Below, piece by piece: positions 977 through 16,723 of a stretch of 64,000 nucleotides of DNA. This DNA is from an uncultured Chloroflexia bacterium (lineage in GTDB: Bacteria > Chloroflexota > Limnocylindria > Limnocylindrales > CSP1-4): positions 138,930 to 202,929 of the forward strand of contig CAWGEL010000023.1 in NCBI GenBank assembly GCA_963821595.1, given 5' to 3'. Below the pieces are notes generated by a model. That model was given only the letters and a program-made list of their open reading frames with translations, was not told where the DNA came from and ran no database searches. The position numbers and the translations under genes are program-made. How positions within the stretch are numbered: the first letter of the stretch is position 1; each line of letters begins with the position of its first letter.

Positions 977-1657
977 ATGGTCGAGGCGAAGCGACTGATG
1001 GCAGATCCCCCGATCGGCAACGCGCAGGCGGTCCGGGCGCTCGTGGAGCGCGCGGTCGACGCTGCCCTCGGGGAAGCCCGGGCGGCCGTGCCCATGGGCG
1101 CCGACCGATCCCCCACCGGGGCTCCGGGAGCAACCCCGCCGGCCCCGGCCCCGGCCGCACCTGCACCCGCCGTCGCGCCGGGAGCCGCCATCGCCATCGG
1201 CGCGGATCACGGCGGCTTCGGCCTCAAGCAGGTCATCGCCAAGGCGCTGTCAGAGCGCGGCTATGCGGTCCGCGACTGCGGCACGAACGGCCCCGACGCG
1301 GTTGACTATCCCGACTTCGCCCACGCCGTCGCCCGCCTGGTGGCCGATGGCACCTGCGCCGCCGGCATCGTCATCGACGGGGCCGGCATCGGGTCGGCCA
1401 TGGCCGCGAACAAGGTTCCCGGCGTGCGGGCGGCCCTCTGCTATGACGTCTCGTCGGCGCGCAACAGCCGCGAGCACAACCACGCCAACGTCCTCACGCT
1501 GGGCGCGCGGCTGATCGGAGAAGGACTCGCCATGGAGATCGTGACCACCTGGCTGGCGACCGCGTGGGGGCCGGGCCGCCACGCGGCCCGCGTCGACAAG
1601 ATCATGGAGATCGAGCGGCGCTACGCGAGCCCGGCAACCGGCGGAGCCCCCCGATGA
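977..1657 (+). CDS. rpiB: Ribose-5-phosphate isomerase B-like (RpiB/LacAB family) with ~75-aa N-terminal encapsulation-peptide-like extension
   Basis: The core [13 protein letters not shown]...[28 protein letters not shown]...[14 protein letters not shown] aligns with RpiB. The N-terminus has an amphipathic helix ([16 protein letters not shown]) followed by a [11 protein letters not shown] linker. The stop overlaps the deoC start (ATGA at 1654-1657). Confidence 0.85.
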
Positions 1658-2532
1658 CCACGCCAGGGTTCGACCGCGACACGCTCATCGAAGCGATCAC
1701 CCGCCAGGTCCTTGCGGGCATGGCCGAAGGCCCCCTCGGCACCGGCGGTTGCGCCACCTGCCGCCTGGCCTGCGCGACCTCCTGCCCGGATCGCGTGCGC
1801 GAGGTCGTCACTTCCGGCGCGACCCGCGTGGAGTACCACGGGCCGGGCGGCGACGTCCCGCGCGACCTGGCCCGCTACATCGACCACACCCTGCTCCGCC
1901 AGGACGCGACCGCCGACCAGATCGACCGGCTCTGCGCGGAAGCCCGCGAGCACCACTTCGCGGCCGTGTGCATCAACCCGACCTGGGTTCGCCGGGCAGC
2001 CGACAACCTGCGCGGGACCGACGTGCCGGTCGCGTCCGTCATCGGCTTCCCGTTCGGCACGAGCACCAGCGAGATCAAGGCGATGGAGACCCGTCGGGCC
2101 ATCCGCGACGGCGCCCGCGAGATCGACATGGTCATCAACATCGGGGCGCTCAAGAGCGGGATGCAGGACCTGGTCCGGCAGGACATCGCGGGCGTGTCGG
2201 ACGCCTGCCACGAGGCCGGGGCGATCAACAAGGTGATCATCGAGGCGGCTCTCCTCACCGACGAGGAGAAGGTGATCGCCTGCCGCCTGGCCCAGCTCGC
2301 GAAGGCCGACTACGTCAAGACCTCGACCGGCTACGCGTCGGGCGGGGCGACCGTCTTCGACGTCGCGCTCATGCGCGAGACGGTCGGCCCTCGCATGGGC
2401 GTCAAGGCGGCCGGCGGCATCCGCACCGCCACGGACGTCGAGGAGATGATCGCCGCCGGGGCGACCCGGATCGGCGCGTCGGCCGGCGTCAAGATCGTCA
2501 CCGGAGAGAGGGGCTCGCATGAGCAATATTGA
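1654..2532 (+). CDS. deoC: Deoxyribose-phosphate aldolase (DERA) with ~70-aa N-terminal extension
   Basis: The DeoC core is recognisable: [36 protein letters not shown], and the Schiff-base region DYVKTSTGY...[10 protein letters not shown]. The extension contains the helix [15 protein letters not shown] and the motif [13 protein letters not shown]. The ATG at 1654 overlaps the rpiB stop. Confidence 0.9.
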
Positions 2533-3157
2533 GCTTCGTGCCTACGTCTTCCTCGACAGCCTCCAGGCCCAGTATTCGGCGTTCCTCGGCACGGTCGCCC
2601 AGGGGTTCCTGCCGCTGGCCGGCGATGCGTCCCTGTACGTCGAGGTATCGCCGGGCATCGAGATCAACCGCCTGACGGACATCGCCCTCAAGGCGACCCA
2701 GGTCAAGCCCGGGATGCAGATCATCGAGCGCTACTTCGGCCTGCTCGAGGTCCATTCGCCGTCGCAGGCCGAGGTGCGGGCCGCCGGTGCCGCCATCCTT
2801 CGCGAGCTCGGCATCGAGGAGCACGACCGGATCAAGCCGCGGATCCTCTCGAGCCAGATCATTCGCCGCATCGACGACCACCAGGCCCAGCTCATCAACC
2901 GGACGCGCCACGGCCAGATGATCATCGGCGGCCAGACCCTCTACGTGCTGGAGCTGGAGCCGGCGGCCTACGCGGCGCTGGCCGCCAACGAGGCCGAGAA
3001 GGCCGCCCGGATCAACATCCTCGAGGTGCGCTCGTTCGGCTCGATGGGCCGGGTGTACCTCGGCGGGGAGGAGCGCGACATCGACGTCGGCTGGCGCGCC
3101 GCGCTGGCCGCGATCGAAGGGCTCGAGGGGCGGGAGGGGCGCGAGGGGGCCAGGTAG
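2519..3157 (+). CDS. BMC shell protein, divergent tandem-domain (BMC-T-like)
   Basis: A 212-aa protein inside the shell-gene block. Its two ~90-aa halves each carry a BMC-like helix motif ([11 protein letters not shown] and [14 protein letters not shown]). A strong SD (GGAGAGAGGGG) precedes the ATG at 2519, and the gene overlaps the deoC end by 14 nt. Confidence 0.55.
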
Positions 3158-3232
3158 CACGCAACGCCGGCGACCGCCGGATCGACAGGTCGACGGGAGC
3201 CGAAGGGCTCCGCCCGAAGCAGGAGAGATTCG

Positions 3233-3541
3233 ATGGCTGACGCACTTGGGATGATCGAGGCCCGCGGGTTCGCCGCGATGGTCGAGGCCGCGGACGCGAT
3301 GGTCAAGGCGGCCAAGGTCGACCTGGTCGGCTACGAGAAGACCGGCGGCGGCTATGTCACGGCCATCGTGCGCGGCGACGTCGCCGCCGTGAAGGCCGCG
3401 GTGGAGGCGGGCGTCCGCAATGCCGCCAAGGTCGGCGAAGTCGTCGCCAGCCACGTGATCGCCCGGCCGCACACGAACATCGACATCGCCCTGCCGCTCG
3501 GCCGGGCCGACGAGGCACGCGCCGAGACGGGCGGCCGCTAG
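3233..3541 (+). CDS. BMC-H hexameric shell protein (PduA/EutM/CcmK-like, PF00936-type)
   Basis: The sequence is canonical: [57 protein letters not shown]. The SD AGGAGAG lies at 3221-3227. Confidence 0.95.
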
Positions 3542-3666
3542 CACCCGGCGGAGCGCCGCAGGGAGGAGCGCCGCAGGGAGGCGCGGCTCGAGACGGGGCG
3601 GCGCTGCCGCAGGGTGGCGCCGCCGCGCCCGGCCGGCCTCCGCCGGTTCGCCGGCTTGGAGGAACC

Positions 3667-3954
3667 ATGCTCCTGGGACGAGTCGTCGGGACGGTCGTCG
3701 CGACGCGCAAGGAACCGCAGATCGAGGGCTGGAGCCTGCTCCTGGTCCGCCAGCTCGACGCGGACAACCACGAAGGCAGCGGCTACGTGGTGGCCGTGGA
3801 CGCCGTCGGGGCCGGCGTCGGCGAGGTCGTGCTCTATGCCTCCGGCAGCTCGGCCCGCCAGACGGAGGTCACGCGGGACCGGCCCTGCGACGCGGTGATC
3901 ATGGCCATCGTCGACATCTGGGAAGTCGGCGGGAAGGACGTCTTCCGCAAGTGA
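3667..3954 (+). CDS. BMC-P pentameric vertex protein (EutN/CcmL/PduN-like, PF03319-type)
   Basis: The 95-aa protein reads [17 protein letters not shown]...LLLVRQLD...[24 protein letters not shown]...DAVIMAIVD, a typical EutN fold sequence. Confidence 0.9.
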
Positions 3955-3973
3955 CCCGGCCGGCCGGGACGAG

Positions 3974-5458
3974 GTGGCGCGAAGAGCGATGAGCGAGCTC
4001 AGCGACCGCGAGATCCAGGACATCATCGAGCGGGTCCGGCACCGCGTCGCCGGCGCGCCGGGCGCGCGGCCGGGCGCAGCCATGCGCGCCGACGCGGAGC
4101 TGGCCGCTGCGGCCGCCTCGTCGGCCGAACTCACGGACGGCGTCCACGCCACCATCGACCAGGCCGTGGCAGCCGCCCTGGCCGCCTTCGGGTCCTACCA
4201 GGCAATGGGCCTGAAGCGCCGCTACGCCATCGTCGAGGCCATCCGGACGTCGATGCTCGAGCACGCCGAGCAGCTGGCCCGCATGGCCCACCGCGAGACC
4301 GGCATCGGCCGGTTCGAGGACAAGATCCTCAAGAACCGCCTGGTGACGACGAAGGCGCCCGGGCCGGAGGACCTCGAGGTCGCCGCGACCACCGGCGACC
4401 GCGGGATGATGGCCACCGAGTTCGCGCCATTCGGCGTGGTGGCGGCCATCACCCCGGTGACGAACCCGACCTCGACCGTGATCAACAACACGATCAGCAT
4501 CGTGTCCGCCGGCAACGCGGTCGTCTTCAACGCCCACCCCAACGCGAAGCAGTGCTCGGCGGAGACGGTCCGGCTGCTCAACCGGGCGATCGTGGGGGCC
4601 GGCGGGCCGGCGAACCTCGTCGCCGCCGTTGCCCAGCCGACGATCGAGAGCGCCCGCGCGCTGATGAACCACCCCTCGGTCCGCCTGCTGCTCGTGACGG
4701 GCGGGCCGGGCGTCGTCCGTGAGGCCCTGCGCACCGACAAGCGGGCGATCACGGCCGGGCCGGGCAATCCGCCGGCGGTGGTCGACCAGACCGCCGACGT
4801 CGAGCGGGCCGGCCGCGACATCGTCCGCGGCGCATCCTTCGACAACAACCTGGTCTGCATCGACGAGAAGATCGCGATCGTCGTCGACTCGGTGGCCGAC
4901 CGCCTGATCCGGGCGATGGTCGGCGCCGGTGCCTACCTGCTCAAGGAGCACGAGCTGCGCCGGCTGGAGCGGGTCATCTTCCGGGAGCTTGGCGAGCCGG
5001 GCAAGCCGGGCGTGATGAACCCGGCCTGGATCGGCAAGGACGCCGGCCGGATCCTGGCCGAGATCGGCATGCGCCCGGAGGCGGACCCGCGGCTGCTCGT
5101 CGCCGACGTGCCGCGCGACCACAGCCTGGTCTGGACCGAGCAGATGATGCCGGTCCTGCCGGTGGTCCGCGTCGGGACCGTGGACCAGGCGATCGACCTC
5201 TCGGTGCGCGCGGAGCACGGCTTCCACCACACGGCCTCGATCCATTCCACGAACGTGGAGACGATCACGCGCATGGCCCGGGCCATGAACTGCTCGATCT
5301 TCGTGGCCAACGGGCCGAACCTGGCCGGCCTTGGCGAGGGCGGCGAGGGCTTCTGCTCCTTCTCGATCGCCAGCCCCACCGGCGACGGCCTGACCCGGCC
5401 GCGCACGTTCTCGCGCGAACGACGGATCACCGTCGTCGGCGCGCTGCGGATCATCTGA
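3974..5458 (+). CDS. CoA-acylating aldehyde dehydrogenase (PduP/EutE-like) with N-terminal encapsulation-peptide-like helix
   Basis: The active-site motif SFDNNLVCIDEK, TGGPGVV and FANGPN regions resemble PduP/EutE. The N-terminus is SDREIQDIIERVRHRV followed by an Ala/Gly linker. An alternative start is the ATG at 3989. Confidence 0.9.
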   Translation: MARRAMSELSDREIQDIIERVRHRVAGAPGARPGAAMRADAELAAAAASSAELTDGVHATIDQAVAAALAAFGSYQAMGLKRRYAIVEAIRTSMLEHAEQLARMAHRETGIGRFEDKILKNRLVTTKAPGPEDLEVAATTGDRGMMATEFAPFGVVAAITPVTNPTSTVINNTISIVSAGNAVVFNAHPNAKQCSAETVRLLNRAIVGAGGPANLVAAVAQPTIESARALMNHPSVRLLLVTGGPGVVREALRTDKRAITAGPGNPPAVVDQTADVERAGRDIVRGASFDNNLVCIDEKIAIVVDSVADRLIRAMVGAGAYLLKEHELRRLERVIFRELGEPGKPGVMNPAWIGKDAGRILAEIGMRPEADPRLLVADVPRDHSLVWTEQMMPVLPVVRVGTVDQAIDLSVRAEHGFHHTASIHSTNVETITRMARAMNCSIFVANGPNLAGLGEGGEGFCSFSIASPTGDGLTRPRTFSRERRITVVGALRII

Positions 5459-5459
5459 C

Positions 5460-6257
5460 GTGAGCCCTGCACCCCGCGCCCGGTCGGCCGCGTCGGCGGC
5501 GGGCTCGGCGGGCCCGGCGGGCCGCGGCGCGTCGGCGCCTGGCGCGGGCCGCGGCGCCTCGGACCCGCGTGGCATCACCGCCTCGGACCCGTCGGGCCCG
5601 GCTGGCCTCGACCCGGCCGTCGCCCTGCTCGAGCTGTCGTCGATCGCGGTCGGCATCGAAGCGGGCGACGCCATGGCCAAGCGCGCCCCGATCGACGTGC
5701 TCCACGCCGGCACGGTCCATCCCGGCCGGTACCTGGTCCTCGTGGGCGGGGCCGTCGCGGACGTCGAAGAAGCGCTCGATGCCGGCCGGGAGATGGGCGA
5801 GGGCTGCATCCTCGACGTCGTGCTGCTGCCGGGCGTGGACCCGCAGGTCGTTGCCGCGCTCCGTGGCCGCCGGCTGACGGGCGAAGGCGAGGCCCTGGGC
5901 GTGATCGAGACGACCACGGTCGCCTCGGTCATCGACGCCGCCGATGCCGGCGTGAAGGGCGCGCTGGTCCGCCTGCTGGAGCTTCGGCTGGCGGACGGGC
6001 TGGGCGGCAAGGCCTACCTGCTGTTCGACGGGCGGGTCGCCGACGTGGAGGCGGCCGTGGAGCTGGGGATGGCCCGGGTCGCAGCGAGCGCGCGGCCGGT
6101 GCACCCGGTCATCGGGCGGGTGATCCCGCAGCTGCACGACGCAATGCGGGCGAATCTCGAGGCCGATGGCCGCTTCCGGGCCGTGCTGCGGCCCGGCGGC
6201 GCGAGCCCAGTCGCTCACGTCGAAGCGCCGCCACGCCCGCGCCGCCGGAGGCCCTGA
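5460..6257 (+). CDS. BMC-T tandem-domain shell protein (PduT-like) with low-complexity N-terminal extension
   Basis: There are two BMC domains: ALLELSSIAVGIEAGDAMAKRAPIDVL... and ALGVIETTTVASVIDAADAGVKGALVRLLELRLA...GGKAYLLFDG. The GTG start lies 1 nt after the AldDH stop. Confidence 0.85.
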   Translation: MSPAPRARSAASAAGSAGPAGRGASAPGAGRGASDPRGITASDPSGPAGLDPAVALLELSSIAVGIEAGDAMAKRAPIDVLHAGTVHPGRYLVLVGGAVADVEEALDAGREMGEGCILDVVLLPGVDPQVVAALRGRRLTGEGEALGVIETTTVASVIDAADAGVKGALVRLLELRLADGLGGKAYLLFDGRVADVEAAVELGMARVAASARPVHPVIGRVIPQLHDAMRANLEADGRFRAVLRPGGASPVAHVEAPPRPRRRRP

Positions 6258-6261
6258 CGCC

Positions 6262-6987
6262 ATGCAGCTCGCCCGTGTCATCGGCACCGTCGTGGCGACC
6301 GTCAAGGCACCCGGCCTGGAAGGCGTCAAGCTGCTGATCGTCCAGCCGCTCGACCGACGGCAGCAGCCGTCGGGCACGCCGGTCGTCGCCGCCGACGCCG
6401 TGCACATGGCCGGGCCCGGCGAGCTCGTCTACATCGTGGCGGCCCGCGAGGCGGCCGAAGCGATGCCGGACCCGTTCGTGCCCGTCGACCACGCCATCGT
6501 GGGGATCGTCGACGCGGTGTCGCTCCTGCGGCCGGACGAAGGGGCCGCCGTCAACGACGGCGGACAGGACGACCGCGCCGCCCCGCACGAAGGCGAGGGC
6601 GCCGCGCCGCACGACCGCGCCCGACGGCGGCCGGCCATGAAGCTCGCCCGGGTGGTCGGGACCGTGGTCTCGACGATCACCATGCCCGCTCTCGAGGATC
6701 GGACGCTCCTGCTCTGCGACCTGGTCGCGCCGGACGGCAGGGCAGCCGGCGGGTACCTGATCGCCGTCGACACTGTGGGGGCCGGCGCCGGCGAGACCGT
6801 CCTGATCCTCGACGAGGGCAACTCCGCCCGGCAGATCCTCGGCCTGCGCCAGGGCCCCATCCGGACCGTCGTGGTCGGCATCGTGGACGACGTCGCGGTC
6901 GAGGCCGAGCACGTACCGGGCCAGCTCCCCGTGGCGACGCCTTCAGGAAGCCGCAGGACGATCCCGAGTCGGCGGACGCGACCATAG
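6262..6987 (+). CDS. Fused tandem BMC-P: two EutN/CcmL-type domains in a single reading frame
   Basis: Domain 1 starts at ATG 6262 (MQLARVIGTVVATVKAPGLEGVKLLIVQPLD...IVGIVDAV). Domain 2 starts at the in-frame ATG 6637 (MKLARVVGTVVSTITMPALEDRTLLLCDLV...VVVGIVDDV). No stop codon separates them, and a ~36-aa acidic/Gly/Ala linker joins them. The ATG at 6262 lies 4 nt after the BMC-T stop. Confidence 0.7.
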   Translation: MQLARVIGTVVATVKAPGLEGVKLLIVQPLDRRQQPSGTPVVAADAVHMAGPGELVYIVAAREAAEAMPDPFVPVDHAIVGIVDAVSLLRPDEGAAVNDGGQDDRAAPHEGEGAAPHDRARRRPAMKLARVVGTVVSTITMPALEDRTLLLCDLVAPDGRAAGGYLIAVDTVGAGAGETVLILDEGNSARQILGLRQGPIRTVVVGIVDDVAVEAEHVPGQLPVATPSGSRRTIPSRRTRP

Positions 6988-7152: not shown

Positions 7153-7965
7153 ATGCAGCGAAACCTGGTTCCCATCGGGCGCTTCTCTCGCCTCTGTCGG
7201 CTGACGATCCCGGCCCTGCGCCACTACGACGACGTCGGCCTGCTTCGGCCGGCGGCGATCGACCCTGACACCGGCTACCGCTATTACAGCCTCGCCCAGG
7301 CCGAGGAGGCGGAGTGGATCCGCATCCTGCGGTTCATGGACATGCCGATCGAGGAGATCAGCGCCCTCCTCGCCGAACGCGATCCTGAGGCCAGGGCGGA
7401 CCGGCTCGACCAGCACCGCCGGCGCCTGCAGGGTCGGATCGAGGGCTACCAGGCTTCGCTTGCCTTCCTCCGTCGACTCATGAGCCAGGAGGCAGGTCCG
7501 ATGCAGTACGAGGTCCATGTCCGGGAGACGGCCGACCAGCCCGTCGCCACCGTCCGCGACCGCACGCCCGTGTCCGGCTTCCCCGCGTTCTTCCAGGGCG
7601 CCTACGGGGAGATCCTCGGCCTGATCGGGGCGGCAGGGATCCAGCCCGCCGGGCCGCCCTTCTCGATTTACCACGATCCGGAGTTCACCGATGACGACGT
7701 CGACGTGGAGGTGGGCTTCCCCGTCGCCAGGGCCGTGGCGTCGGCCGGCCGGGTCGTCGGGCGGGTCCTGCCGGGCGGCCCGGTCGCGGAGACTCTCCAT
7801 GTCGGGCCGTACGACGAGGTGGGGCCGGCCTACCGGGCGGTCGCGGGCTGGGTCCAGGAGCACGGCCACGAGATGGCCGGCCCGCCGCGCGAGGTCTACC
7901 TCGTCGGCGTCGGCATGGCCGAGCCGGCCGAGTACCGGACCGAGATCGTGTTCCCGATCGGATAG
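7153..7965 (+). CDS. MerR-family transcriptional regulator with C-terminal GyrI-like effector-binding domain
   Basis: The N-terminal MerR HTH reads IGRFSRLCRLTIPALRHYDDVGLLRPAAIDPDTGYRYY. A coiled-coil follows, then a ~150-aa GyrI/SbmC-like domain (...FSIYHDPEF...VEVGFPV...). Confidence 0.85.
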   Translation: MQRNLVPIGRFSRLCRLTIPALRHYDDVGLLRPAAIDPDTGYRYYSLAQAEEAEWIRILRFMDMPIEEISALLAERDPEARADRLDQHRRRLQGRIEGYQASLAFLRRLMSQEAGPMQYEVHVRETADQPVATVRDRTPVSGFPAFFQGAYGEILGLIGAAGIQPAGPPFSIYHDPEFTDDDVDVEVGFPVARAVASAGRVVGRVLPGGPVAETLHVGPYDEVGPAYRAVAGWVQEHGHEMAGPPREVYLVGVGMAEPAEYRTEIVFPIG

Positions 7966-8015: not shown

Positions 8016-8483
8016 CTACTTCCCCGCGACCCGCCGCGTGCCCACCAGGATCAGCACGAAGGTCGTCTCGACGACGTCGACCGCCGCGATCACGAGCGCG
8101 ACGACGATCGGGAGCGGACTCGCGACCAGCCAGCCGGCCGCCGCGGCCAGCGCGGCCAGGCCGAGGAACACCAGGCGGACGCCGCGGATCAGGTGGACCG
8201 GTCCCTCGACCCCGGGGTCGCGCGCCGCGTCGATGCGGCCAACGCCGGCCGCGAACGCGGCCAAACCGACGAGGACCGCCGCCCCGACGAAGCAGGCCCT
8301 CACGATCGCCGGCGGCGTGACGACTGCCTGGAGGAGGCCCGCGTCCCGGCCGAGGGCCGTGCCGAGCGCGAACGCGCCCAGGCCGACCAGCAGCGAGACC
8401 AGGTCGATGCGGCGGACGCCCGCCGCACCACGGGCGGGCTGGCTCTCGCCGTTCGGTAGCCCCGCCCCGGCCGCTCCGCTCAC
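8016..8483 (-). CDS. Small integral membrane protein (about four hydrophobic helices), function unknown
   Basis: The GTG at 8483 overlaps the mec stop (GTGA). The translation has hydrophobic segments such as LVSLLVGLGAFALGTAL, ACFVGAAVLVGLAAFAAGV, LVFLGLAALAAAAGWLV and IVVALVIAAVDVV. This is only the 3-prime third of the 497-aa track ORF. Confidence 0.55.
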   Translation of the reverse strand: MSGAAGAGLPNGESQPARGAAGVRRIDLVSLLVGLGAFALGTALGRDAGLLQAVVTPPAIVRACFVGAAVLVGLAAFAAGVGRIDAARDPGVEGPVHLIRGVRLVFLGLAALAAAAGWLVASPLPIVVALVIAAVDVVETTFVLILVGTRRVAGK

Positions 8484-8977
8484 GGCGCGACGTCCAGCGC
8501 CACCTCGAACACGTCGCCGTCGACGATGCGCCAGGCGCGGACGGACGGGGCGCCGGTGACGGGATCCGCCTCGGCTTCCGCCAGCGAGACCAGCAGGTAG
8601 AGCGCCGCCGGCCAGTTCGCGGCCAGGCCGACATCCGTCGCCGACGGCCGGGCCGGCGTCCGCACGTGACTGTGAGCGATCCCCCAGACCACCTCGTCGG
8701 CGTCGTCGATCGCCCCGAACACAGCCAGCAGGTCGTCGGGGTGAACGTTGTACCGGTGCGGCGACGCGTAGGCGTTGCGCGTGGGGTGCCAGAAGCGGGC
8801 CGTCCCACCGGCCGCCGGGTCCGCGGAACCGGAGACGATGCCGCACATCTCGTTGGGGTATTCGGCGCGCGCATGCGCGACGAGCGCGTCGCGGATCGCC
8901 GCCGGCAGGACGGCGCGTGCCGGGCCCGGGTGGGTCGCAGGATCGGGTGCGGCCGCCTCGACCGGCTGGCTCACCAC
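8480..8977 (-). CDS. mec: JAMM/MPN+ metalloprotease (Mec-type CysO hydrolase)
   Basis: It has the Glu motif NEMCGIV and a full JAMM motif, HSHVRTPARPSATD (HxHx7Sx2D). The GTG start overlaps the cysM stop. Confidence 0.85.
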   Translation of the reverse strand: MVSQPVEAAAPDPATHPGPARAVLPAAIRDALVAHARAEYPNEMCGIVSGSADPAAGGTARFWHPTRNAYASPHRYNVHPDDLLAVFGAIDDADEVVWGIAHSHVRTPARPSATDVGLAANWPAALYLLVSLAEAEADPVTGAPSVRAWRIVDGDVFEVALDVAP

Positions 8978-10026
8978 CAGTTGACCCCGCCCTCCAGGTC
9001 CGCCTCCATGTCGTCGAGCTCGCGGCTGAACGTGCCGGCGGACAGGTATTTCCAGCCGCCATCGGGCAGCAGGGCAACGATGGTCCCGGACGCCATCCGC
9101 CTCGCGACGCGCGCGGCGGCAACCAGGACCGCGCCGCAGGAAGGGCCGGCGAAGATGCCCTCCCGGAAGACGAGCTCGCGAAGGGACGCGATCGCCTCCC
9201 GGTTGGAGACCAGGAACTTGCCGTCGAGGATCGCCGGGTCGAACACCTCCGGCACGAATCCCTCGTCGAGCGAGCGCAGCCCCTGCACGTTCTCGCCGGG
9301 CAGCGGCTCCGCGGCGTAGACGCGGACACCGGGCCGGTGCTCCTTGAGGTACCGTCCCGTGCCGGTGAGCGTCCCGCCGGTCCCGAGGCCGGCGACAAAG
9401 ACGTCGATCTCCGGGCAGTCCGCCAGGATCTCGGGCCCGGTGGTCTCGTAATGCGCCTGGGGGTTCGCCGGGTTGCCGTATTGGTATGGCATGACGAACC
9501 GTTCGTCACGACTCACCAGGTACTTGGCCAGGGCGATCGCACCGTTGCTCCCCTGCTCCGCCGGGGAATCGATGATCTCTGCCCCGAACAGCGCGGCGAC
9601 CTGGCGGCGCTCCTCGGTCACGTTCGCCGGCATGACCAGGGCCACCCGGTAGCCCTTGCGACGGCCGATCATGGCCAACGCGATCCCGGTGTTGCCCGAC
9701 GTCGGCTCCAGGATCACTGAGTCCTCGTGGAGGAGCCCGCGCCGCTCCAGATCCGCCACCAGGTAGGCTGCCGCGCGGTCCTTCACGGACCCGGTGGGGT
9801 TGTACATCTCGAGCTTGGCCAGGATCCGCACCGCCGGACTCGGGCTCATCCGGGGGATCTCGACCAGCGGCGTGTGCCCGACCGCGTCGAGGATGCTCGC
9901 GTACCGGCCCCCGTGCCTCGGCAGTTCGGCGTGGTCGTGAACGTGCGGATGGTCGGCCGCGGCCGACTCCGCGGGCGACGCTGGCGCCCCGGGGCGAGCC
10001 CGGACCGGCCGCGAGGTGATCGTCAT
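8971..10026 (-). CDS. cysM: Cysteine synthase CysM-type (PLP-dependent; sulfur-carrier-protein-dependent O-phosphoserine sulfhydrylase family)
   Basis: PLP-lysine region NPTGSVKDRAA, plus TSGNTGIALA and GLGTGGTLTG. The ATG at 10026 overlaps the cysO stop (ATGA). There is a ~40-aa His-rich N-terminal extension. Confidence 0.85.
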   Translation of the reverse strand: MTITSRPVRARPGAPASPAESAAADHPHVHDHAELPRHGGRYASILDAVGHTPLVEIPRMSPSPAVRILAKLEMYNPTGSVKDRAAAYLVADLERRGLLHEDSVILEPTSGNTGIALAMIGRRKGYRVALVMPANVTEERRQVAALFGAEIIDSPAEQGSNGAIALAKYLVSRDERFVMPYQYGNPANPQAHYETTGPEILADCPEIDVFVAGLGTGGTLTGTGRYLKEHRPGVRVYAAEPLPGENVQGLRSLDEGFVPEVFDPAILDGKFLVSNREAIASLRELVFREGIFAGPSCGAVLVAAARVARRMASGTIVALLPDGGWKYLSAGTFSRELDDMEADLEGGVNWW

Positions 10027-10301
10027 GCCGCGCCGCCGGCCATGGCCGGCAGGATCACGACCTCGTCGCCGTCGGCGATGGCCGTCGCCAGGTCGCCGGT
10101 GTAGCGCACGTCCTGGCCGTCCACGTACACGTTGACGAACCGATTGAGCCCGCCATCGTCGGTGAGCAGCTGCTGACGCAGCCCCGGGTGCGCGGCGGTC
10201 AACGCGGCGAGGATCTCGCCGACCGTCGCGCCGCTGACATCGAGCGTCTTGCTGCCGCCCGCCTGCGCTCGCAGGACCGGCGGGATCCGGATCCTGGCCA
10301 T
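10023..10301 (-). CDS. cysO: ThiS/MoaD-family sulfur-carrier protein (CysO-like), C-terminus ...AMAGG-AA
   Basis: A 92-aa beta-grasp-type sequence (VRYTGDLATAIADGDEVVILPAMAGGAA). It sits between an E1-like adenylyltransferase and cysM. Both gene junctions are ATGA overlaps. Confidence 0.85.
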   Translation of the reverse strand: MARIRIPPVLRAQAGGSKTLDVSGATVGEILAALTAAHPGLRQQLLTDDGGLNRFVNVYVDGQDVRYTGDLATAIADGDEVVILPAMAGGAA

Positions 10302-11599
10302 CAGCGACGCTCCGGTGCGCCCGCGGCGAGAGAGGCAACGCCCGGCCCACCCAGGACGAAGGTCCCCTCGCCAACCGCGATCGGCGTCGTCGGGACGGCC
10401 GGTGCCGCGCCGGGTCCGGTCGGCGCTGCGCCGGGTCCGGCCGGCGCCGCGGGCCGGGCCGCCGTCCCCGCCCGGTACGCCGCGACCGCCTCGTCGGAGC
10501 AGGCCGGGCAGTCCGGGTCGCGCTGCAGCGTGAGCTCGCTGAACGTGCCATCGAGCGCGTCGAAGAGGAGCAGGCGCCCGATCATCGGCTCACCGATGGC
10601 GAGCAGGAGCTTGAGCACTTCGCTCGCCTGCAGGAGGCCCATGATCCCGGGCACCACGCCCAGCACGCCGGCGACCGAGCAGCCCGGAGCGAGCTCCGGC
10701 GGGGGCGGCGACGGGTAGAGGCAGCGATAGCAGGGCCCCTTGCCGGGGGCGAAGACGCTGAGCTGGCCCTCGAAGCGGAACACCGACGCATGGACGACCG
10801 GGATGCCGGCGGCGACGGCCGCATCGTTGAGCGTGTAGCGCGTCTCGAACGTGTCGGTGCCGTCGAGGATGACGTCGTAGCCGGCGATGATCCGGTCCAC
10901 GTTGTCCGGACCAAGGACCTCGTCGATGCCCACGACGTGCACGTCGGGGTTGAGGGCGGTGATGGTCCGCTCGGCCGAAACGACCTTCTTCTCGCCCACC
11001 CGGTCGGTGGCGTGGAGGACCTGGCGCTGGAGGTTCGAGATGTCGACCACGTCGAAATCGACGATCCCGAGCGTGCCGACGCCGGCCGCCGCCAGGTACA
11101 GCGCGGCGGGCGAGCCCAGCCCGCCGGCGCCCACGAGCAGTACCTTCGAGTCGAGGAGCCGCGCCTGTCCCTCCGAACCGACCTCCGGGATCAGGACGTG
11201 GCGGCTGTAGCGGCGCTTCTGGTCGGCCGTCAGGATCGACGGCTGAATCCAGGGCAGGCCTCGCGCCTTCCATTCGTCGAAGCCGCCCGCCAGCGAGACC
11301 ACGTCCTCGTAGCCCATCGCCCGGAGCGTCTGGCCGGCGAAGAGAGAGCGGACGCCGCCGGCGCAGTAGAGCACGACCGGCGTCCGCCGGTTCGGCACGG
11401 AACCCTCGACCTGCTGCTCGAGGTAGCTCTTGGAGATGTGCGTCGCGCCCGGGATGTGGCCCTGCTCCCACTCCTCGGTCTCGCGCACGTCGATCACGGC
11501 GACCCTAGGGTCGGCGCGGAGGCGGTCCGCGGCCGGCGGATCGACCTCCGGGATCTCGGCGCGGGCCTCGCGGAGGAGGTCGGCGTAGGTCTTCGGCAT
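10301..11599 (-). CDS. Rhodanese::MoeB/ThiF-type adenylyltransferase/sulfurtransferase (rhodanese domain N-terminal)
   Basis: Residues ~20-125 form a rhodanese domain with the active loop CAGGVRS. A ThiF/MoeB domain follows (LLVGAGGLGSPAALYLAAAGVG, two CxxC pairs CYRC and CPAC), then a ~60-aa Ala/Pro/Gly repeat tail. Confidence 0.85.
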   Translation of the reverse strand: MPKTYADLLREARAEIPEVDPPAADRLRADPRVAVIDVRETEEWEQGHIPGATHISKSYLEQQVEGSVPNRRTPVVLYCAGGVRSLFAGQTLRAMGYEDVVSLAGGFDEWKARGLPWIQPSILTADQKRRYSRHVLIPEVGSEGQARLLDSKVLLVGAGGLGSPAALYLAAAGVGTLGIVDFDVVDISNLQRQVLHATDRVGEKKVVSAERTITALNPDVHVVGIDEVLGPDNVDRIIAGYDVILDGTDTFETRYTLNDAAVAAGIPVVHASVFRFEGQLSVFAPGKGPCYRCLYPSPPPPELAPGCSVAGVLGVVPGIMGLLQASEVLKLLLAIGEPMIGRLLLFDALDGTFSELTLQRDPDCPACSDEAVAAYRAGTAARPAAPAGPGAAPTGPGAAPAVPTTPIAVGEGTFVLGGPGVASLAAGAPERR

Positions 11600-11800
11600 G
11601 AGTGGTGAACGGTGCTCCGACTGGTCGACGGGCTGCCGGCTGGGGAAGCCGGCAGGGCGGCTGAATGCGGTCGCCGGCTCGTGGCCTGACGACGCCGCGA
11701 GGAACGCCGGCCCGGTGGGCGCGGATGGCGCCGGCTCAGGCCGGCTGCCGACACCTGCAGTGGTCGGTCGCGTGCGCACGCCGGCGAGGACCTCCGATGC

Positions 11801-12232
11801 TCATCGTTCGGCGGCCTCCGCCGTCGGCGTGCCCGTCGCCGCCGGGTCGGGCGCAGCGGCTGCCGCCCCGCGGTCGGCGAGCGCATGGCTGACCGTGTCG
11901 AGCGACAGCAGCGCGCACTTCAGGCGCGCCGGGCTGATCTCGATCCCCAGCAGGTCGAGGAGGTCGTCGGGCGTCAGCCGCTCGACGTCGCTCACGGGCT
12001 TGCCCTTGATCTCGTCGGTGAGGAGCGACGCCGACGCCTGGCTGATGGCGCAGCCGCGGCCCGTGAAGGCGACCTCGGCGACGACGCCGTTGCGGATCCC
12101 GAGCATCATCGTGATGCGGTCGCCACACAGCGGGTTGGCCCCTTCGAAACGGGCGTCGGGGTGCTCCAGAATGCCGAAGTTGTGGGGCCGCCGGTAGTGC
12201 TCGAGGATGTAGTCGCGGTAGAGGTCGTCCAT
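11801..12232 (-). CDS. sufU: SufU/IscU-like Fe-S cluster assembly sulfur-transfer/scaffold protein
   Basis: The translation reads MDDLYRDYILEHYRRPHNFG...NPLCGDRITM...GRGCAISQASASL...LKCALLS, showing the conserved Cys/Asp ligands. The start is taken at ATG 12232, not the track start at 12340. Confidence 0.85.
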   Translation of the reverse strand: MDDLYRDYILEHYRRPHNFGILEHPDARFEGANPLCGDRITMMLGIRNGVVAEVAFTGRGCAISQASASLLTDEIKGKPVSDVERLTPDDLLDLLGIEISPARLKCALLSLDTVSHALADRGAAAAAPDPAATGTPTAEAAER

Positions 12233-12348
12233 CGGGAGCCGAGTGTAGCGCGGACGTCCACGATCTGCCGGAAATCCGACCTCCTGGGTCGGGTTTCCAC
12301 CCGCGTCGCCGCCGGGGGGCGGCGGTAGCCGGCGCGGCAACCGGCCGG

Positions 12349-13077: not shown

Positions 13078-14206
13078 CTACTTGACCGTGACACCGACCG
13101 TGGTCGGCCAGCCCCTGGTGATCACGTCGTTCGCCCTCGTGATCTGGTCGAGCGTGGGGAGGGCGGCACCGCTCGAGTCGGGCAGGTTGGCCGCCACGTC
13201 GGCCGGGATCGCGTTGGCCTTGACCATCGCGTCGTAGCGGATCGGGTAGCAGTACCCGCTCATCCACGCCAGTTGGCCTTCATTGGAGTACAGGTACTCC
13301 ATCCAGAGCCTGGCCGCGTTCGGATGCGGAGCGTAGGCGCTGATCGCCTGGACGTACATGTCGCCGAGACGGCCGCTCCTGGGCACGACGACCGTGATCG
13401 GGGGGTTGCCCTTCAGGGAGTCCCTGTCAGCGAGGGCGTTGTACGTCCATGCGATGCGGATGGGCGTCTGGCCCGAGGCGACGGTGGCCGTCCTCCCGAT
13501 GACGGGGACGAAGATGCCGGCATCGGTTGAGCTGCTTGAAGTAGTCGAGGCCTGGCTGCGCGTTGTCGAGCGAGCCACCATTGGCGAGGGCTGCCGCCCA
13601 GACGGCCGAGACCGCCTGATTCGAGCCCGTCGGAGCACCGGCCAGGGCGACCGTACCCTTGCCCGCCGCGAGCAGGTCGGACCAGTCCCGGGGCACGGTC
13701 CTGATCACCGACGTGTTGACCTCGAATGCCATCACGCCGTAGTAGTCGCCATACCAGTACCCGCTCGGGTCCTTGGCCGAATTGGGGATGTCGGCCCAGG
13801 TCGACACTTTGTACGGAGCGATCAGTCCCTCGCTCATTGCCTTCGACCCGTCGGACGGTCCGACGTCGATGACGTCCGGCGCGGCCGGGCCCTTGCTGCC
13901 CTTGTTGGCGGTGATGGCTTCGAGCGCCTGCTGAGAGCTGCCGTCCGGGTTGAGGCCGTTGACGGGGATGCCGTACCTGGCAGTGAAACCGTCGATCACC
14001 GCTCCGTAGTTGCACCAGGACCGGGGCAGGGCAATCGTCGTCAGCCCGCCCTCCGCCTTGGCCGCCTGGACGAGGCCCTCGGGGATGGTGCCGGGCGAGG
14101 CCGCCGCCGGCGGTGTCGGCGCGGGCGTGCTCGAGCACGCGGCCGCCAGGAGCGCGGCTGCAACGCCTGCCGCGGCGAGCCGGGACGACCTGCGATCGCT
14201 GTGCAA
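13078..14206 (-). pseudogene. ABC-transporter family-1 solute-binding lipoprotein, interrupted by a +1 frameshift near 13528
   Basis: The N-terminal part (frame of track ORF 13427..14344) has SD GGGAAAGGGAG, a TTG start at 14206 and the lipobox LLAAACSS. The C-terminal part continues in track ORF 13078..13638. The frames join at ...DYFKQLN|DAGIFVPVIG once one extra C in AACCGAT is removed. The length of 1129 nt is not a multiple of 3. Confidence 0.75.
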
Positions 14207-14475
14207 CTGCTCCCTTTCCCGCGTTCTTGCCGGAGATCCGGAGGCCCTGCGCACCCCTGACGGCGGGTCCGTCGCGGCGCCCCGCGGCTGCCGTAGCGAT
14301 CGATGAGAACCCGCCTGTCGAGATCCCATCACTGGCGACGCCACGGGTCGACCACGGCCCGGATGGTACCGGTCGCGGCACCGGAGTCAAACGACCGGAA
14401 GCTGAGGCTGGCATGGTTCGAGGTCGGCCGCCCGGAAAGCGGGCGACCGCCGCGCGGATCGCTCGACGCAGCGTC

Positions 14476-15795
14476 CTACCCGAAGATCCGGCGGACCTCG
14501 CGGAGGCCGGCGGCGAGCGCGTCGATGTCCTCGGTCGTGGTGAAGACGGAGAAGCTGGCCCGGACCGTGGCGGCCAGGTCGAGGCGCTCGTGGAGGGGCA
14601 TGGTGCAGTGGTGGCCGGCTCGCACGCAGACGCCGACCCGATCGAGGATCTGGGACACGTCGTGGGGGTGGATGCCGGACAGGTTGAACGGCACGACGCC
14701 GCCGCGAACGTCAGCCGGAGGCCCGTACAGGCTGATGTCCGGCACCTCCCGGCGCAGCGTCTCGAGCGCGTACGCCACCAGCTCGCGCTCGTGGGCGCGG
14801 ACCCGGTCCATGCCGAGGTCCGCAAGGTAGTCGGCAGCGACGCCCAGGCCGATGGCCGCCGAGACGTCCGGCGTGCCGGCCTCGAACTTCCAGGGCAGGT
14901 CGTTCCACTCGCTGCGGCGCAGCCGGACCTCGCGGATCATCTCGCCGCCGGCGAGGAAGGGCGGCATCTCCTCGAGGATCGCGCGCCGCGCCCAGAGGGC
15001 ACCGCTGCCCATGGGGGCCAGCATCTTGTGGCCGGAGAAGGCGTAGAAGTCCGCGTCGAGCGCCTGGACGTCGACCGGCAGGTGCGGCACGGCCTGGGCG
15101 CCGTCGATCAGGACGAGGGCACCGGCCGCGTGGGCCATGTCGACCATCTCGCGGACGGGATTGATCGTGCCCAGCGTGTTCGACACCTGGGTGAACGCGA
15201 CGAGCTTCGGGTGGAGGCGAAGCAGCACCTCGAACACATCGAGGCGGAGGAGCCCGTCATCGGTGATCGGGATGAACTCCAGGTCGCCGTCGACCTCCTG
15301 GACCAGGAGCTGCCACGGCACGAGGTTCGCGTGATGCTCCATCTCCGTCAGGACGATCGCATCGCCCTGGCCCAGGTGGCGTCGGCCCCAGCTGTAGGCG
15401 ACCAGGTTGATCGCCTCGGTGGCGTTCCGGGTGAAGATGACCTCGTGGGGGTCCGGCGCGTTGATGAAGCGCGCCGTGGCGGCCCGGGCGGCCTCGTAGG
15501 CGGCCGTCGCCATCTCGCCGATCTCGTAGATGCCGCGGTGGACGTTGGCGTTGTACTCGCGGTAGTAGCGGTCGACGGCCTCGATCACGACCGCCGGCTT
15601 CTGGCTGGTGGCGGCCGAATCGAGGTAGACCAGGGGCACGCCGTGCGACCGCTGGCCCAGGATGGGGAAATCGGCGCGGAGGGCGTGCGGGTCCAGCGGC
15701 CCGCGCGGATCGGCCGCCGGGCTGGCCGACGCGGTGGCCGGGGTGGCGGCGACGGGTCGGGCGGCCGGGGCGGTTCCCGTGGCGACGTCGGTCAT
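14476..15795 (-). CDS. sufS: Cysteine desulfurase SufS (class V aminotransferase, group II)
   Basis: The translation includes FPILGQ...VYLDSAATSQKP, the PLP lysine in FYAFSGHKMLAPMG, and the active-site Cys region RAGHHCTMPL. The start ATG is at 15795 with an upstream GAGGGA. Confidence 0.9.
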   Translation of the reverse strand: MTDVATGTAPAARPVAATPATASASPAADPRGPLDPHALRADFPILGQRSHGVPLVYLDSAATSQKPAVVIEAVDRYYREYNANVHRGIYEIGEMATAAYEAARAATARFINAPDPHEVIFTRNATEAINLVAYSWGRRHLGQGDAIVLTEMEHHANLVPWQLLVQEVDGDLEFIPITDDGLLRLDVFEVLLRLHPKLVAFTQVSNTLGTINPVREMVDMAHAAGALVLIDGAQAVPHLPVDVQALDADFYAFSGHKMLAPMGSGALWARRAILEEMPPFLAGGEMIREVRLRRSEWNDLPWKFEAGTPDVSAAIGLGVAADYLADLGMDRVRAHERELVAYALETLRREVPDISLYGPPADVRGGVVPFNLSGIHPHDVSQILDRVGVCVRAGHHCTMPLHERLDLAATVRASFSVFTTTEDIDALAAGLREVRRIFG

Positions 15796-15832
15796 GGGAG
15801 CGTTCCCTCGCGCGTCATGGCCTCGAAGGACC

Positions 15833-16723
15833 TCATCGGGCCACCGTGGCGGGCGCCTGCGCGCCGGCAGCCGGCGAGCCGGCCGCCACACCCTCGAGGC
15901 TGTCCGTCTCGTCGGGGTCGTAGCCGGCCTCCTGGAGGACGGGGCCGTAGCCCTGCTCCTCGAGCTCCAGGGCCAGCTCGCGGCCGCCGCTCTTGATGAT
16001 CCGGCCGCGCGCCAGGACATGGACGAAGTCCGGCGTGATGTAGTTGAGCAGGCGCTGGTAGTGGGTGATGAGCAGGACGCCCAGGTTCGGGTTGAGCATC
16101 GCATTCACGCCTTCGGCGACGATGCGCAGGGCGTCGATGTCGAGGCCGCTGTCGGTCTCGTCGAGGATCGCCATCTCCGGCTCCAGGACCGCCATCTGGA
16201 GCATCTCGAGGCGCTTCTTCTCGCCGCCGGAGAAGCCCTCGTTGACGTAGCGGCCGGCCATCGCCTCGTCCATCCGCAGGAGCGCCATCTTGGAGCGCAT
16301 GAGCTTGCGGAACTCGCCCATGGCGATGCCCCCGCGGGTCGGGTCTGTCGGATCGACGTCAGGGTTCGATTCGACCCCCTGGCGGCGGGCGTTCAGGGCA
16401 GTGCGCAGGAAGCTCGCCACCGACAGGCCGGGGATCGCGGTGGGGTACTGGAAGGCGAGGAACATGCCGAGGCGCGCCCGCTTGTCGGGCGAGAGCGCCA
16501 GGATGTCGCGGCCCTTCCAGCGGACCTGCCCCTTGGTGATGACGTACAGGGGATGGCCCATGAGCGCGTAGGCCAGCGTCGTCTTGCCCGAGCCGTTCGG
16601 GCCCATGATCGCGTGGACTTCGCCAGGCCCCACTGTCAGGTCGATCCCCTGGAGGATCGCGGTACCGGGGCTGGCGGCGGGCGCCACGTGAAGGTCACGG
16701 ATCTCGAGGTGCTGGTCGCTCAC
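15833..16723 (-). CDS. sufC: Fe-S cluster assembly ATPase SufC
   Basis: Walker A is [10 protein letters not shown], the signature is FSGGEKKR, and Walker B is [11 protein letters not shown]. SufC-specific context is present (LEIRDLHV..., [10 protein letters not shown]). Confidence 0.9.

Follow-up and report, generated by a model that had tools for sequence, protein, structure and literature searches.

A two-domain BMC-P reading frame in a Chloroflexota microcompartment locus is most likely two coupled genes joined by one extra base

The window, by which we mean the whole 64,000-nucleotide stretch of DNA analysed here from an uncultured Chloroflexia bacterium, carries a microcompartment operon of the SPU type (977-6987, forward strand), identified with Pfam and having the same gene order as the related loci L001, L002 and L087. 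On the forward strand it encodes RpiB (977-1657), DeoC/DERA (1564-2532), a BMC-T(dp)-like shell protein (2519-3157), BMC-H (PF00936; 3233-3541), a BMC-P of 95 amino acids (3667-3954), an aldehyde dehydrogenase (3974-5458) and BMC-T (5460-6257); these are followed by the two-domain reading frame that concerns us here (6262-6987) and then by a MerR/GyrI regulator (7153-7965). The enzyme set, DERA (PF01791), RPI (PF02502) and aldehyde dehydrogenase (PF00171) in one operon with shell genes, is that of SPU loci, and the BMC-P genes are accompanied by both BMC-H and BMC-T. The gene at 3667-3954, which a sequence-only reading of the window had taken for a single-domain BMC-P, is a real one (PF03319, E = 2.2e-29).

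The nearest relative of the locus, L087 (ERZ25039489 contig_33977, an ENA/NCBI record of 288 kb), was found through its identical 95-aa BMC-P; its gene order is the same down to the MerR/GyrI gene, and its nucleotide identity across the two-domain frame is about 90%. Identity is uneven along the operon, reaching 97-99% at 2343-3842, over the BMC-T(dp)-like, BMC-H and first BMC-P genes, and 78-93% in most of the remaining locus, which reflects either unusually strong constraint or a recent exchange of the shell-gene block. For BMC-T, L087 has a gene of 185 aa, about 80 aa short of the frame listed for the window (5460-6257, 265 aa). Indels of 68 + 1 nt separate the two sequences at 5512-5591, the Pfam stretch runs from residue 53, and the actual start probably lies near 5600. 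In several relatives (L001 6662-7126, L002 6708-7166 and L086 1078-1536) the last BMC-P gene is followed by an ATGA-coupled gene of about 152 aa in which Pfam matches nothing; this gene is missing from both the window and L087, where the MerR/GyrI-like regulator takes its place.

As assembled, the frame at 6262-6987 (forward strand) runs through 241 codons without an internal stop. Pfam finds PF03319 (EutN_CcmL) in it twice (E = 8.8e-50 overall; score 167.6 bits, cutoff 25), the best stretch spanning profile positions 1-83 of 83 and the first stretch covering residues 1-84, so that the family is present at full length and above the gathering score. Domain 1 begins at ATG 6262 and domain 2 at ATG 6637, with a spacer of 36 aa between them (RPDEGAAVNDGGQDDRAAPHEGEGAAPHDRARRRPA) and a basic tail of 28 aa beyond domain 2. 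Translation and Pfam therefore confirm what the sequence-only reading had described, namely two complete domains in one frame, a linker and a basic tail (there put at about 25 aa). That reading had also remarked on the ATGA at 6637-6640 and on a +1 frame open from at least 6482; both observations hold, and the opening extends further, from 6338 to the TGA at 6638-6640, leaving two frames open over 6338-6640. The genome has a G+C content of 73%, at which stops are rare in alternative frames, and an indel would consequently yield a long, clean-looking chimera. The two domains share 38% identity, while the 95-aa BMC-P is 48% identical to domain 2 and 44% to domain 1; given these pairwise values of 38-48%, all three are old paralogues, and domains 1 and 2 are not the product of recent duplication.

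In L087 the same two domains are encoded by separate genes, which we call D1 (125 aa) and D2 (116 aa), with a 4-nt ATGA stop/start overlap. DNA alignment shows the junction GGCGGCCGGCCATGAAG to be identical in the window and L087, and locates the difference upstream, in one extra base at 6555 on the forward strand (window GTCAACGAC, L087 GTCAG-GAC). Its placement is ambiguous within 6554-6556 owing to an adjacent substitution, and the forms of the site around 6553-6556 with one base fewer are GTCAAGAC or GTCAGGAC. This is the sole indel inside coding sequence that is not a multiple of three when window positions 1143-6987 are compared with L087 (about 6 kb of aligned coding sequence). The sequence-only reading had stated that the fusion would be refuted if 6482-6637 were one base longer or shorter in a close relative, giving a stop at 6638-6640, and L087 is such a relative.

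With base 6555 removed, D1 occupies 6262-6640 (forward strand, 125 aa) and has the length of D1 in L087. It consists of a PF03319 domain (6262-6519, Pfam) and a low-complexity tail (6520-6640), for which frame 0 holds as far as about 6554 and the +1 frame from 6556 onward, until the TGA at 6638-6640. The tail ends in ...SLLRPDEGAAVKTADRTTAPPRTKARAPRRTTAPDGGRP before the stop and differs from that of L087 at two residues, G/E and K/R. The distal part of the apparent linker (6557-6636) is an out-of-frame reading of this D1 C-terminal tail. D2 occupies 6637-6987 (forward strand, 116 aa) and corresponds to the second Pfam stretch and to the separate 116-aa gene of L087; its PF03319 domain (6637-6900, Pfam) is followed by a basic low-complexity tail (6901-6984) and the stop at 6985-6987. 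The genes overlap at 6637-6640, where D2 starts with the ATG and D1, in the +1 frame, stops with the TGA. An ATGA overlap is the usual junction for translational coupling, and a weak GGCGG Shine-Dalgarno-like motif lies six bases 5' of the D2 ATG. Single-domain BMC-P proteins measure about 85-150 aa, a range that the 241-aa frame exceeds as assembled and into which both the 125-aa and 116-aa genes fall once the base is removed.

Low-complexity C-terminal tails rich in Pro, Ala and Arg are a feature of both paralogues in coupled loci, and their length is highly variable: in 45 such loci the D1 tail ranges over 1-47 aa and the D2 tail over 1-115 aa, often with a basic patch at the end. The D2 tail of the window differs from that of L087 by 5/8/5 substitutions at the three codon positions, with no bias, and keeps PSGSRRT..SRR.RP at its end. 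We found no description of the D1 and D2 tails in PMC8217296 or PMC11585597.

The frame in which the linker has been selected can be read from its substitutions. Relative to L087, and counted in frame 0 at codon positions 1/2/3, the D1 domain has accumulated 2/0/20 substitutions and the D2 domain 1/2/21, while the linker past the indel (6557-6636) shows 3/0/0. These three, at 6604, 6607 and 6616, occupy first codon positions in frame 0 and are non-synonymous there, so selection on the linker in the fused frame is contradicted by three out of three substitutions; in the +1 frame all are synonymous (CCG>CCA, CGC>CGT, ACC>ACG). The sample is small, and because all three substitutions past 6555 are synonymous only in the +1 frame, the selected frame is the one that ends at TGA 6638-6640. 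Composition agrees: the +1 translation fits the tails of 14 relatives about 14 bits better than the frame-0 linker does, being less acidic, free of His, more basic and more Pro-rich. G+C by codon position is uninformative for the linker frame, as tails rich in Pro, Ala, Arg and Gly have a high G+C content at every codon position, whichever frame is read. Because L087 is itself a long-read assembly, the polarity of the change is drawn from the three synonymous differences and from the overlap in 45 outgroup loci.

Another position for the extra base, in the GGCC just 5' of the ATG, was suggested by the basic end of the frame-0 tail (RARRRPA), which is common among relatives, and by the reading CCGGCATGA in L069. 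We rejected it because the L087 junction is identical, the indel lies at 6555 and the synonymous pattern favours the +1 frame.

One must ask whether the strain itself acquired the base, very recently, as a real 1-nt insertion that gives a protein of D1, altered tail and D2, probably together with free D2 from ATG 6637, the fusion being either tolerated or mildly harmful. We consider this unlikely, if by no means negligible. The tail is disordered and evolves fast (1-47 aa in relatives), which makes an indel there mutationally easy and perhaps tolerable; there is no second frame-breaking indel relative to L087 in about 6 kb of neighbouring coding sequence; and base 6555 lies outside any long homopolymer, the classic context of Nanopore error. 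However, the substitutions since the split from L087 still obey the +1 frame, and any real insertion must therefore be very young; the distribution of fused forms, described below, also counts against it.

To place the junction in a broader setting, one genome per GTDB species was scanned for tandem D1/D2 genes, which returned 80 loci spanning Chloroflexota (Limnocylindria, Anaerolineae), Actinomycetota, Acidobacteriota and other phyla; with two more, 82 were scored. D1 and D2 are adjacent and co-occur in every one. A 4-nt ATGA/GTGA overlap joins them in 45 of the 82, a 1-nt overlap in two, and in 31 the D1 stop lies at or upstream of the D2 start. The genes are fused in the remaining four (L002, L003, L019 and L062), so that the conservation of fusion and linker among orthologous SPU loci for which the sequence-only reading proposed to look is absent: L087 has separate genes, as do 78 of the 82 loci. 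The four fused loci all belong to the 35 from long-read 'contig_N' assemblies, and the 47 from short-read assemblies include none (one-sided Fisher p = 0.03), a contrast that is not significant within the clade of at least 75% identity (3/31 against 0/24, p = 0.17). Comparison of the fused L002 with its unfused sister L024 reveals a one-base difference 9 nt 5' of the ATG, a site other than that of the window's indel, which indicates that the fusions are independent, sporadic indels.

These data bear on a further possibility, a programmed ribosomal frameshift or stop read-through that would produce both separate D1 and a D1-D2 fusion. The two frames open across 6338-6640 are what such a mechanism would need, but long open alternative frames are expected by chance at 73% G+C, relatives in which D1 stops at the ATGA have no need of it, and the scattered indel positions suggest no conserved slippery site or structure. 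We regard it as extremely improbable.

Other double-domain proteins do exist in databases. Searching for related proteins brought up about 20 homologues with two domains (180-277 aa, 40-70% identity), and these are one encouragement for supposing that a functional tandem BMC-P has evolved, in which two paralogues linked covalently as a heterodimer would form mixed pentamers, for example 2+2+1 with the third BMC-P. The constant adjacency and coupling of D1 and D2 point the same way, as does the observation that grey- and orange-clade BMC-P always co-occur for reasons unknown (PMC8217296). Yet the architecture is missing in L087, the linker is selected in the other frame, and none of the 47 short-read loci is fused. 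The linkers of the fused homologues, when aligned, are unrelated in length and sequence, as expected of products of different indels, and domain 2 always starts with M or V, that is, it retains its own ATG or GTG. Seven of the proteins (P0007, P0009, P0010, P0011, P0014, P0015 and P0021) clearly lose the reading frame within a domain. At about 80% identity, the nearest homologues are instead single-domain proteins of 132-155 aa, comprising PF03319 and a Pro/Ala/Arg-rich C-terminal tail.

The provenance of the fused proteins is equally telling. All ten that were looked up (nine homologues and the window's own) are singleton clusters, found on one contig each, and every fused homologue whose contig was looked up (P0002, P0003, P0005, P0018 and P0022) lies on an ENA ERZ250395xx 'contig_N' assembly. 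Three of those contigs contain other split genes: an AldDh of 188+299 aa in L083, a 2-Hacid_dh of 104+170 aa in L084 and a serpin of 121+289 aa in L086. This restriction of fused forms to long-read assemblies and singletons, on contigs full of split genes, also argues against a recent insertion in the strain. HMMER was run exhaustively against 1.84 billion representatives of clusters at 50% identity; there were 2205 matches at E <= 0.001, and only eight of the best 150 contained two matched stretches. Seven of these eight were inspected (six fetched, plus P0015; P0219, of 92 aa, was left out) and none is a clean double-PF03319 protein, all being frameshift-garbled or not truly double-domain. 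The search for double-PF03319 architectures that the sequence-only reading had recommended thus uncovers no clean family among the best 150 matches. We take the tandem BMC-P to be largely refuted and very improbable as a reading of the window, and are confident that the fusion is not an evolved architecture.

Two related frames were seen in the course of these comparisons. In L084, a single 277-aa frame (6001-6834, P0018) holds three PF03319 domains in an ACI-like locus with a class II aldolase, BMC-H and a 2-hydroxyacid dehydrogenase; since several genes are split on this long-read contig, the triple-domain protein is probably the same artefact occurring twice. In L070, a long-read locus, the D2 frame from about 7540 continues into the next gene with the tail ...VTITREEARDILARWQPILRLADWDIDLRLV..., which looks like another indel-made chimera.

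The window contains one other broken gene, which the sequence-only reading had placed near 13528. The frameshift there is real: about 7 kb from the fused frame, a solute-binding-protein gene (PF13343, SBP_bac_6; 13078-14344, reverse strand) is split at about 13.43-13.64 kb over overlapping frames, one part (13427-14344, reverse strand) matching profile positions 4-113 and the other (13078-13638, reverse strand) positions 140-235. Among candidate sites drawn from a GC-frame plot and from Pfam matches of neighbouring frames, this was the only further gene found to be split, the remaining frame switches that we checked being ordinary gene boundaries. Between the two broken loci lies a reverse-strand cluster (8480-11779) encoding a JAB-domain protein (8480-8977), a PLP-dependent PALP protein (within 8971-10551) and a ThiF-rhodanese protein (10301-11779), with a NifU-like gene (11801-12340) and a class-V aminotransferase (14476-16104) nearby; the cluster and its neighbours resemble genes for sulfur-carrier-dependent cysteine synthesis and Fe-S cluster assembly.

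Our essential contention is that 6262-6987 almost certainly represents two neighbouring, coupled BMC-P genes merged by one extra base, most likely through an assembly error. D1 (6262-6640) and D2 (6637-6987) each encode a PF03319 domain of 85 aa followed by a short tail that is basic and disordered, and they are coupled through the ATGA; an extra base at about 6555, in the D1 tail, shifts the frame so that TGA 6638-6640 is missed, and the shifted D1 then runs in frame into D2 to give an apparent two-domain protein. Of the explanations offered by the sequence-only reading, this was the fourth, a single-base indel in the linker concealing two ATGA-coupled genes, and it is favoured by L087, by the +1-frame substitutions and by the survey of 82 loci. 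The other three, mixed 2+2+1 pentamers with the BMC-P at 3667-3954, a domain that dangles or bridges two vertices, and internal initiation at 6637 within a true fusion, find no support, the fusion being missing from L087 and 78 of 82 loci and no clean double-PF03319 family having emerged among the best 150 matches from 1.84 billion cluster representatives.

That the extra base is an error of assembly, and most plausibly a consensus indel left uncorrected when a metagenome was assembled from Nanopore reads, seems likely to us; the second split gene, 7 kb away in the window, speaks for it. The window presumably derives from a long-read Nanopore assembly, to judge from its relatives and its 'ncbi,ena' provenance; among those relatives are the MFD long-read MAGs, which were assembled with Flye from Nanopore reads only and given a single Medaka polish (PMC12313526). 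Several observations weigh on the other side. Base 6555 does not sit in a long homopolymer; as the sole frame-breaking indel relative to L087 in about 6 kb, it gives no obvious sign of a high local error rate; the long-read and short-read loci differ only at p = 0.17 within the clade of at least 75% identity; and L087, in which the genes are intact, is a long-read assembly too.

The structural features of the locus have analogues in known systems. Two shell-protein domains in one frame recall, at face value, BMC-T proteins, which are tandem PF00936 fusions that form pseudohexameric trimers and which, in contrast to the PF03319 'fusion', are conserved across orthologues with a fixed linker; here there is no such conservation and the linker is an out-of-frame tail. 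Moreover, five-fold symmetry cannot be tiled by dimers. A closer likeness is with ATGA-coupled pairs merged by indels in high-GC long-read assemblies, where an ATGA junction, scarce stops and a one-base upstream indel combine to make a chimeric frame; the same merging has occurred independently in L002, L003, L019 and L062, and in L070 for D2 and the next gene.

Without the extra base, the locus shows no substantive difference from the 'BMC-P triplet' known from SPU, HO, ACI and FRAG loci and reported as general to SPU loci (Sutter et al. 2021, PMC8217296; Dwyer et al. 2024, PMC11585597), the comparison being one of paralogue number, adjacency and enzyme set. It has three PF03319 genes (3667-3954, 6262-6640 and 6637-6987), of which D1 and D2 are adjacent and, in relatives, always together. 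The triplet comprises one grey-clade member, one orange-clade member and one of another clade (Sutter 2021, PMC8217296), and the fact that D1 and D2 occur together and side by side throughout the 82 loci is consistent with this make-up. The underlying arrangement is almost certainly one already known, and no new protein architecture is involved.

BMC-P proteins occupy the vertices of shells as homopentamers, of which only 12 are needed, yet many loci carry three vertex-protein paralogues. Had the fusion been real and conserved, it would have been the first tandem BMC-P, with a bearing on why these paralogues are retained. There is a slim chance that the insertion is real in the population and creates a covalent D1-D2 heterodimer of BMC-P paralogues that always co-occur; if so, and if the heterodimer were still assembled into shells, D1 and D2 would stand side by side in the same vertex, a natural experiment that would point to heteropentamers as the reason for the unexplained triplet. 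For the family as it is recorded, the consequence is more immediate: about 20 false double- or triple-domain BMC-P proteins are already in public protein collections, and the lesson is that in high-GC long-read metagenomes a single indel readily turns ATGA-coupled pairs with low-complexity tails into false multi-domain proteins.
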